Below are positions 18,076 to 45,212 of a stretch of DNA of 64,000 bases, in pieces; the stretch's first letter is position 1; each line of letters begins with the position of its first letter. Origin of the DNA: Eledone cirrhosa. Lineage: Eukaryota. Below the pieces are notes generated by a model that searched no databases, was not told where the DNA came from, and saw only the letters and a program-made list of their open reading frames with translations. A program made the position numbers and the translations under genes. The stretch covers positions 304,606,001 to 304,670,000 of the forward strand of contig OZ024742.1 in the NCBI GenBank assembly GCA_964016885.1, in the 5' to 3' direction.

Positions 18076-18193
18076 TTCTTCTCATGTTTTTATATATATA
18101 TATTTATATTTATAACATAATATAAAATAAAGTTATATCTGTATACATACAGAGTGATGAAACGAGAATGTGCCAATGTGTATGTAAATATAC

Positions 18194-18953
18194 TCAGACT
18201 CAGACTCAGAAGCTCCCGCGTCTTGCGACGCGTTCGGTCAGCAGCCAGTTGCACAGCGTCCCGCCATTGTCTGTTTGTCGCTCGCAGGTCCCTCTCAACT
18301 GTCTGGCGCCAGTTTATTTTGGGTCGCCCTCTCCGTGTGCTTCCCTGCGGACTCCATGTAAGTACTTGGTTCGCCAGTCTCTCCGAGGGAAGTCTCAAAG
18401 CGTGCCCAAACCAGCCCAGGCGTCGCTTGCAGATGGTAGAAGAGACTAGCTGCTGGTTGGTGCGGTTCCTGACTTCCTGGTTTGTTATGTGATCACTCCA
18501 TTTAATCCCCAGGATCTTTCGCAGACACCTGGAATCGAATGCGTCCAACTTCTTCTCTTGGCTGGTCTTAAGGTGCCATGTTTCACTTCCGTACAAGAGT
18601 GGGGACAGCACGTTGCTGTTGTAGAATCTCATCTTTGTTTTGAGGGTGAACTTCCTGCTCTTCCAGATGTTGTCAAGCTGGTTAAATGCTGCTGAAGCCT
18701 TTCCCATTCTACATTGCAATTCACTGTCCATGGCGCCCCCATTGTCAATGGAGCTTCCTAAGTAGGTGAAGTTGTCCACTATCTCCACCTCCCCCTGTTC
18801 AATGAAGACACTAGTTGGTGATGGGTGTGTCCCAGATAACATGCTTTTGGTCTTCTTAGCACTGATATTGAGACCTAAGCTTCCTGCTTCGACATTGATA
18901 TTGTTCATAATGATTTGCAGGTCAGCTGTGCTCTCTGCAAGTGCAGCAATATC
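18194..18953 (-). mobile_element. 5'-truncated RTE-clade LINE (RT C-terminal half)
   Basis: ORF 18090-18965 contains DIAALAES, GLNISAKKTK, FTYLGS, LLYGSETW, RCLRKILGIKW, RRLGWFGH and RGRPK; (TCTGAG)3 tail; 10-bp TSD GTAAATATAC at 18184-18193 and 18954-18963. Confidence 0.93.
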
Positions 18954-19404
18954 GTAAATATACACATTTTCAATATACAGATTTCTGTATATACCAGAAC
19001 AATGGATTTTCGGAACGGCTTATGTCTTCATCAGAAGGTATGTATATCAGTTAAACAACCACAGGGAAACACGGATTTGATGGGCTTATATATCTAATCG
19101 CTCATAATATTATTCAGAATAGACGTACAATATAAAAAGGGGAGACGGCAATACCTAAAGTAGCATCCGACAAGATGTGAGTTTCTGCAAATAGCACACA
19201 GATTCTAACTATAGAGTGTGGAGAATCTTATACTCTTCTAAGACAATACTTGCAATGTGGGTTTCATAGTTAAGAATAGTCTTAAGTTAGTGAAATATAT
19301 TCCACACATTCACAGGCGCGCGTAATTACGTGTATATATATATTTATGCACTCACTCTGTCTCTCTCTATCTCTCTCTATATATATATAAATATATATAT
19401 ATAT

Positions 19405-39297: not shown

Positions 39298-41712
<2,415 letters not shown>

Positions 41713-43854: not shown

Positions 43855-43941
<87 letters not shown>

Positions 43942-44026
43942 TACAATTGATATTAAATACATGGAAACTATATTTATAAAACCATATTTATTCTATTATA
44001 TATATTTCAATATATTGAATACTTAC

Positions 44027-44095
44027 TCCAGCCATCTTTCGAGTGCTTTGAATCAGTTGTAAACATCTATATTTGTTGGATTTCCAACAAATTAA
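44027..44095 (-). pseudogene. Exon remnant, possible decayed P-loop
   Basis: gtt gga aa- tcc...atg ttt aca act gat resembles GKSTLLNxMF only if frameshifts are allowed; donor gga|gtaagt. Confidence 0.25.
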
Positions 44096-44286
44096 ATATC
44101 TCTTAAATATCTCTTATACATATATATAATATATTTCTGTTTCTTGTAAACAGATTTTCGTTTCATCCCGGCATCACTAGCTTGGGTCCACGTGTGTTTT
44201 GTTATTTTAATTCAACGCGCTGTTCACATGCCTGCTTTTAAATTGCCCTCTGGCATCTCAGCAGTGTAATTTTGTTAACGTAGTGA

Positions 44287-44352
44287 GCACTACTGATGAA
44301 CGACCCCGAACTGAAAAGTTTCGTGAAATAGTCTTTTTAGACTATATAGTGC
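44287..44352 (+). ncRNA. Intact canonical type I hammerhead ribozyme
   Basis: gcacta-CTGATGA-acga..tcgt-GAAA-tagtct tttt agacta-TA-tagtgc; 6-bp stem I, 4-bp stem II, 6-bp stem III, AUA cleavage after 44346. Confidence 0.9.
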
Positions 44353-44854
44353 ACTTGCAGATTTCCCCAAATTGACGGTTAAGATTTTATTTTGAGTTAA
44401 GATTGTATTGGTTTTTCCCCCAACTTACACAAAGTATGAGTATAACATTTTCTTCTTGACTTGTTTTGAATTAAGATTGAATTATTTATCCCATATCTTA
44501 CGTTAAAATGTTCATCTTGATGTAATAGTCATTTATATGTCTGAATTATTGTCGGCTTTTTGCTTTTTGCTTTCTCTATTTTCATATATATATATATATA
44601 CACGTACAAGGACATATTTATACAAACATACGCACACATATACATACATACCTATACACATGCACATATATATATATATATCTATATACACTTATAAGAA
44701 TTTTTTTTTCTATAAAAGATACTACATTGGTTCCACACATGATCCAGACATTTATTTAAACATCCAAGATTTCGGAATGGTTAAGTTGGTCTCGAATGCT
44801 TTCATTTTGTTAGAAGAAATCCCCTGTCTTTTCTTTCTCTCTCTCTCTCTCTCG

Positions 44855-44899: not shown

Positions 44900-45087
44900 A
44901 TTGTTACTACTTTTGGCACAAGGCCAACCATTAATCAGTGTATTACTGGTACTTTATTTTATCGACCCTGTAAGGATGAAAGGCAAAGTTAACCTCGGCG
45001 GGATTTGAACTCAGAATGGCAAGGGCCGTAACTCTATGCGTCAAAGCATGGCGTCCGACCCTCTACCGATACTGCCAATCCACCGCC
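44899..45087 (-). mobile_element. Full-length SINE (short variant)
   Basis: Core motif and GGCGGTG head. Confidence 0.88.
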
Positions 45088-45212
45088 ATTATATATATAT
45101 ATAATGAGAGGTATATATATGTGCATACATACACATGTATATATACACATTTTTGTTCACAAGTATGTGAGATTGTGTGTTGTCGACCTTAACGAGTGTT
45201 GCTCTATGATTA

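Follow-up and report, generated by a model that had tools for sequence, protein, structure and literature searches.

The hammerhead motif found in the window, a 64-kb stretch of Eledone cirrhosa DNA (64,000 nucleotides), belongs to an abundant repeat family that is a non-LTR retrozyme, a kind of element for which coral, mussel, and axolotl examples (PMC7229834) as well as vertebrate ones (bioRxiv 10.64898/2026.07.22.740005) have been published. What sets the family apart is a long helix pairing the 5′ leader of the ribozyme with its loop II, together with a mapped internal start site. It is very probable that the family is a non-autonomous hammerhead retroelement moved by a Penelope-like element (PLE). 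No published description of this family was found in the open-access literature on cephalopod hammerheads, Penelope ribozymes, and retrozyme targeting.

By direct reading, the motif at 44287-44352 of the forward strand was a type I hammerhead that fits the consensus core CUGANGA/GAAA/UH, with three helices and an open stem I. Its parts are as follows.

44287-44292/44347-44352, forward strand: stem I, 6 bp, read from the letters
44293-44299, forward strand: CUGAUGA core, read from the letters
44300-44303/44321-44324, forward strand: stem II, 4 bp, closing a 17-nt loop
44325-44328, forward strand: GAAA core, read from the letters
44329-44334/44339-44344, forward strand: stem III, 6 bp, with a UUUU loop
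U44345 and A44346, forward strand: part of the triplet AUA, predicted cut 3′ of A44346

The predicted fold of the isolated 66 nt was exactly the hammerhead shape, at −15.3 kcal/mol (z = −3.17), and equally good folding was obtained in 2 of 200 shuffles. When both strands of the window were scanned with a structural descriptor, 44287-44352 was the single match, while in 100 third-order Markov shuffles of the window the mean was 0.01 matches with the most permissive setting and 0 with the two stricter ones. The canonical core and three paired stems claimed in the preliminary description were thus confirmed by direct reading, by the fold of the 66-mer, and by the descriptor against shuffles. The check that it had proposed with the Rfam hammerhead models gave no match to the motif, at either the gathering or the E-value level. 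The motif is a real type I hammerhead, its cleavage being a prediction.

The 3.0-Gb genome was searched with 44135-44583 as the query, which yielded 2,185 candidates; the 40 that were scored had 79 to 87% identity over the length. Copies were then counted by exact patterns, so that the numbers are lower bounds: at least 1,258 cores of the ribozyme (6 with the reversed control), at least 2,642 3′ regions of the repeat (control, 0), and at least 712 head-to-tail junctions in which the unit is joined to itself (control, 0). The unit is 620 to 636 bp long (∼630 bp), with a GC content of 32 to 33% in four units and a longest ATG-initiated open reading frame of 37 to 69 amino acids in ten. ARAGORN detected no tRNA-like head in four loci with full units, although diverged heads might escape it, and the tandem layout showed no paired terminal repeats enclosing a distinct interior. 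Circular folds of four units were only modestly stable, being 57 to 60% paired, with z values of −0.65 to −3.15 (25 shuffles each). One tandem array contained 14 full units of 91 to 100% identity. The copy number and tandem arrays, which the preliminary description had singled out for checking, together with the ORF-free unit and the stem covariation described below, bear out its proposal of a retrozyme-like, non-autonomous element. Its ∼450-bp segment at ∼44135-44583 is indeed non-coding; it starts at 44137, though, and is a truncated piece of the ∼630-bp unit.

Several further observations were made on the organization of the family. The array running from L091:6419 to L092:6425 (G000:C1:82.128-82.138 Mb) comprised about 16 units, then a partial unit, and then an inverted partial unit. 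Some array units were near-identical in alternating pairs, which points to later duplication at the DNA level. At L093:5396-8868 (reverse strand), three near-identical full units lay ∼1.4 kb apart, a local duplication that included the flanks. Two contig sets from one sample also held copies of the family, a result that is uninformative on expression, and a metagenome scan with the loop II-stem III pattern gave 0 matches.

Across 148 distinct copies, conservation of the 12 core columns was 0.95 to 1.00, and N7 (0.61) was the only core position that varied across the family; core and stems were intact in 119/148 copies. As 34% of the columns outside the domain fell below 0.9, the rough chance of a 12/12 conserved core is 0.007. 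In stem I, pair 3 was U-A in 106 copies and A-U in 37, and pair 6 was A-U in 83 and G-C in 56. On a tree constructed from 426 columns outside the ribozyme, each of these pairs underwent one compensatory switch at a subfamily boundary, so the support amounts to two covariation events, not dozens. An absence of stem covariation, which the preliminary description had named as counting against the ribozyme, is excluded by these two switches. In a subset of 49 copies, the hammerhead structure showed 53 double changes compared to 21 in shuffles (0/500 shuffles) and was 93.5% paired in register, compared to 30 to 36% when the structure was slid, a test in which the structure derived from the same sequences and was thereby favored. 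Helix III was 99% paired over five pairs in the 49 copies. Stems II and III were near-invariant and therefore uninformative for covariation; the first pair of stem II was U-U in 47/147 copies. RNAalifold recovered stems I and III, gave an alternative to stem II, and did not predict the leader helix. A distal extension of stem I (columns 17 to 21 with 134 to 138) displayed one covariation, but its central pair was unpaired in 34/146 copies, and it was not adopted.

Loop II is ∼31 nt long in the family and is complementary to the 25 nt 5′ of stem I. The pairing opens with 5 bp and continues, beyond an internal loop that is hypervariable (conservation 0.47), with 7 bp and then shorter runs. One of its pairs passes through A-U, G-U, and G-C along the tree (39, 38, and 62 copies, respectively; 139/146 paired), while the adjacent pair changes from U-A to A-U in a small clade and then to U-U in 50 copies. 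The duplex had a median energy of −14.1 kcal/mol, compared to −8.9 kcal/mol with shuffled leaders, and in 93/144 copies it was better than 95% of the shuffles. This helix crosses stems I and II, and in 50/106 core-intact copies it was part of the minimum-energy fold, where it displaced both stems. With nested folding of the same 106 copies, which excludes pseudoknot energy, the hammerhead lay a median of 7.7 kcal/mol above the free ensemble and came within 1 kcal/mol of it in one copy. In structural terms, the helix could either act as a pseudoknot brace, of the sort reported to accelerate other hammerheads (PMC3088659), or block the ribozyme by forming a nested hairpin. A geometric estimate suggests that its outermost 5 bp are incompatible with stem II, which would give two states.

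The insertion footprint was determined from a non-random sample, the matches that came first in the list, each of them on contig C1. For loci picked by the ribozyme pattern, 81/87 segments had their 3′ end at the unit end, ∼256 nt downstream (nine duplicate or array loci excluded), and for loci picked by the 3′ anchor, the proportion was 84/89 (90 loci minus one duplicate). In the latter set, (TA)4 was present downstream of 81/89 segments and upstream of 67/89, against a background of 0.12. The 5′ ends, however, were scattered: 35 fell short of the cut, 35 extended across it within one unit, and 19 went beyond one unit, such that 54/89 segments spanned the cut site and 70/89 amounted to one unit or less. 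Of 52 junction-bearing insertions, 45 finished at the unit end and none started at the cut, and a 5′-end pile-up at the cut was likewise absent from the 89-segment set. Six of the 52 started 11 to 26 nt 3′ of the cut; a 5′-end cluster 7 to 27 nt downstream of it (13/89; positions 385 to 405) was represented by only those 6/52 in this overlapping set and was not relied on. By this footprint, the points at which reverse transcription terminates are scattered and often lie at TATA-like bases. The RNA that was copied was therefore usually continuous across the cut site, either as a ligated circle or as an uncleaved tandem, and the lack of a pile-up fits both equally. Two copies within one insertion had an identity of 0.966, compared to 0.960 to the best other copy (closer in 17/26), and within-insertion identity, providing no separation, was discarded as a discriminator between circular and linear templates. 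A 3′ end that is fixed within (TA)n, combined with scattered 5′ ends, fits PLE retrotransposition.

GIY-YIG matches in the genome numbered 10,595 candidates, of which 150 were scored, and 20 loci revealed several PLE families with ORFs of 636 to 1,096 amino acids that combine a reverse transcriptase (RT) with a C-terminal GIY-YIG nuclease. A CX4CxxC motif precedes the nuclease, which is the Neptune/Nematis layout; the Neptune clade is defined by its position in RT phylogeny and by a C-terminal GIY-YIG preceded by CX2-5CxxC, a motif that Nematis shares (PMC8557442). Named relatives of the PLE protein were bivalve proteins or mollusc-symbiont-labelled entries, at 46 to 49%. Two frames were uninterrupted, namely, L153:1775-5062 (forward strand; 1,096 amino acids) and L151:2809-5622 (reverse strand; 938 amino acids), and are candidates for recent activity. 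PLE families A and B carry minimal hammerheads in which the core is U3-A8, a variant known from PLEs (PMC4209133), and helix III is a palindromic CCGG. Seven loci of family A were inspected for a long ORF, and none had one. The loci of these two core-variant families were L151, L152, L160, L162, and, for family A, L061 to L088; family B has the junction TTTTC-TTTATA...ACTCGTG and a longer tail. Hammerhead-core-like strings in other repeats (L070, L083, L087, and L154) suggest several more minimal hammerhead families. The hammerhead repeat, with its canonical C3-G8 core and stable helix III, differs from families A and B and lacks the helix III of 0 to 2 bp with a palindromic loop that characterizes the minimal dimer-type PLE hammerhead, a distinction that the preliminary description had drawn and that holds against the PLE families of this genome.

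The end of family A reads CCCTGTTTTC-(AT)n-CCTAACTCGTGTGCTTCC, with 247 genome matches, and leads into its start codon in 3/30 loci. The junction of the hammerhead repeat reads CTCTATTTTC-ATTTATATAT-TTAAACTCGGAGCTTTCC. The likeness between the two was scored, with location masked, against other TA-run flanks. For L011, a copy of the window subfamily, 9/5,647 right and 118/4,601 left flanks were as good, while for three other copies it was weaker (right side, 265 to 337/5,647); the likeness is short, was spotted before scoring, and is clear in one of the four copies. At the sequence level, it suggests that the repeat and PLE family A have a common start signal.

Taken as a whole chain, a non-LTR retrozyme that spreads by a self-cleaved and re-ligated RNA circle, copied by the RT and endonuclease of a PLE, is the reading we favor, with some reserve. 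Its starting point is the ORF-free tandem family itself, in which the 3′ end is fixed in (TA)n, the 5′ ends are ragged, and the ribozyme is conserved and covarying. When a copy with two hammerheads is transcribed, the RNA would cut itself to release one 630-nt unit. By analogy with retrozymes elsewhere, this unit would be circularized by a ligase of the host, for example RtcB; cleavage and circles have been reported for mussel and coral retrozymes (PMC7229834). The PLE endonuclease would then nick (TA)n, and the RT would start at a single internal position, the junction UUUUC-AU(U)UAUAU, which lies ∼256 nt 3′ of the cut. Copying would pass the cut site, often exceed one unit, and end at scattered points, as recorded in the footprint. 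Finally, the leader-loop II helix of the family may set the timing of the ribozyme cut.

A less likely alternative, which still carries real weight, keeps the same family and PLE helper but makes the template an uncleaved linear tandem. The leader-loop II hairpin would hold the ribozyme mostly off, cleavage would serve another step, such as trimming or a late protein-assisted cut, and a circle would be unnecessary. Read-through of the cut site without a 5′ pile-up agrees with this, as does the displacement of stems I and II by the leader-loop II helix in the minimum-energy folds counted above. A parallel is offered by an anole PLE. Its protein introduces nicks in AT-rich DNA and begins copying at an internal point of the element's RNA; unprocessed RNA was the dominant substrate, cleavage required protein, and hammerhead cleavage was dispensable for insertion in vitro (PMC11167929). 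Against the linear template, 5′ truncation in each round means that multi-unit sources would need to be rebuilt in all of the junction-bearing subfamilies, whereas a circle would supply them directly. The stable 6-bp helix III, moreover, is like that of circle-forming invertebrate retrozymes and unlike the minimal PLE motifs as described (PMC7229834 and PMC4209133).

A more specific version of the circle model is offered tentatively. The family may carry a built-in RNA switch in which the inner leader-loop II pairing braces stems I and II, while the full ∼20-bp hairpin keeps the ribozyme inactive and thereby preserves the circles. In addition, the RNA would mimic the internal priming junction of a resident PLE, and thousands of genomic copies would record a start there and run-through of the sealed cut.

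It appears improbable that the unit is instead a solitary pseudo-LTR, the terminal repeat of an autonomous PLE that escaped detection. The fixed 3′ end, 5′ truncation, partial tandems, and TA targeting are PLE traits (PMC8557442), and animal retrozymes have been described as related to pseudo-LTRs (bioRxiv 10.64898/2026.07.22.740005). Nevertheless, the ≥712 junctions join the unit to itself, and PLE-like coding matches were present in 10/120 repeat loci. In the two close, co-oriented cases examined (L114 and L119), the coding match was parted from the unit by its own 3′ end and a TA tract. No repeat flanking an RT/GIY-YIG ORF was found in a sample of 50 of the >150 GIY-YIG matches. The profile of the repeat unit had 0 matches in 20 PLE loci, and comparison of the unit with 30 GIY-YIG loci gave a match at the terminal motif only, with no longer homology.

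Still more doubtful is a role for the window copy as a working monomeric ribozyme retained in a host transcript, in an intron or untranslated region. The layout of this copy is as follows.

44120-44134, no strand: TA-rich 5′ flank, the tail of the adjoining repeat
44137-44583, forward strand: 5′-truncated copy of the ∼630-bp hammerhead repeat, profile positions 150 to 634
44262-44286, forward strand: 5′ leader, partner of loop II in family copies; here most of the partner is deleted
44304-44320, forward strand: loop II, 17 nt, compared to ∼31 nt in the family
44380-44385, forward strand: second deletion site, 12 nt, after 44382, relative to the two closest copies
44570-44583, forward strand: fixed 3′ end of the family, ending TTTTC; putative reverse-transcription start point
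44584-44599, no strand: (AT)8 run, putative target microsatellite at the 3′ junction

Neither the core nor any of the three stems shows a flaw, although the copy has diverged by about 7% (93% identity outside gaps to two of the closest copies), which would suit retention by the host; this intactness is, however, to be expected because 119/148 copies are similarly intact. The copy also has private deletions. Loop II has lost 14 to 15 nt near 44307-44310, and short-spacer (short loop II) patterns gave only 16 genome matches, each different (reversed control, 5), out of the total of at least 1,258 cores; since these are so few and all different, the compact loop is a private deletion. Within its flanks, other folds are favored: the predicted probabilities were 0.01 for stem I and 0.06 for stem II, the hammerhead fold was disfavored by a predicted 5.0 kcal/mol, and the leader-loop II duplex that is left amounted to only −2.9 kcal/mol. 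In addition, among 22 long open frames scanned, one had a Pfam match, to DUF6451. Of the preliminary description's suggestion that a “perfect” hammerhead could cleave as a monomer, helix III and the modeled fold of the isolated 66-mer speak in favor, while in context cleavage is doubtful, with the leader-loop II pairing lost and stems I and II rarely formed in the prediction. The leader-loop II helix of the window copy was probably lost after insertion, leaving a passive relic, and this single copy is by itself ordinary decayed repeat DNA.

Other repeats and frames were noted in the window. Directly upstream of the copy, 43917-44010 (reverse strand) and 44012-44125 (forward strand) are inverted remnants of a second hammerhead-bearing repeat, with the 3′ half of the motif only. 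The intact motif of this second repeat is of the minimal type, with a palindromic TATATA helix III; it had 5,446 exact genome matches (control, 0), often as inverted pairs 100 to 200 bp apart. At ∼44900-45090 (forward strand), a short interspersed repeat, presumably akin to a SINE, was found that also flanks many loci (e.g., L020 and L063). A weak PLE-RT-like fragment lies at 39557-39838 (forward strand; 24 to 29% identity, E about 1e-5), and the open frame with the DUF6451 match lies at 18093-19019 (reverse strand).

The possibility that AT-rich repeat DNA resembles the hammerhead consensus by chance, with which the lack of an Rfam hammerhead match would agree, can be dismissed, as shuffles predict at most 0.01 matches per window and the compensatory stem changes alongside a free N7 across the family refute it.

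The retrozyme family can be compared with several known systems. With the non-LTR retrozymes described from coral, mussel, and axolotl (PMC7229834), it shares a type I hammerhead with a full helix III, ORF-free, low-GC head-to-tail repeats, thousands of copies, and co-occurrence with minimal-hammerhead PLEs. It differs from them in its unit of 620 to 636 bp (about 170 to 400 nt in those elements) and in consisting mostly of dispersed copies at or under one unit. The conserved leader here pairs with loop II, whereas the ribozyme is predicted to be free in most of the animal retrozyme circles treated in that report; expression and circles were demonstrated there and are a prediction for the present family. 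Dispersed monomers, few multimers, and a proposed dependence on PLEs are shared with the vertebrate non-LTR retrozymes derived from PLE pseudo-LTRs, and the unit size is within their reported range of 51 to 972 bp (bioRxiv 10.64898/2026.07.22.740005). Here, unlike there, the host is an invertebrate, and the likeness to a PLE that was found is restricted to a junction of ∼45 bp. Neptune-like endonuclease PLEs (PMC8557442; mechanism, PMC11167929) have in common with the repeat a fixed internal RT start, 5′ truncation, partial tandems, microsatellite targeting, and a hammerhead about 200 to 260 nt from the 3′ end (PMC8557442), but the repeat has no RT/GIY-YIG ORF. As in the pseudoknot-stabilized hammerheads described in PMC3088659, the distal ends of stems I and II are paired, replacing loop-loop contacts; the pairing here is far longer, up to ∼20 imperfect bp over the leader and loop II, and is also able to fold as a nested hairpin, which is incompatible with the ribozyme fold.

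Two questions are raised by the published work on retrozymes (PMC7229834 and bioRxiv 10.64898/2026.07.22.740005): which enzyme copies animal retrozymes, and from which template, and what prevents the ribozyme from reopening the circle. Both are testable in this family, which offers a fixed (TA)n start site resembling the end of a resident PLE, a genome that also contains nearly intact PLE ORFs, and a helix whose covarying pairs can be disrupted and then re-formed.
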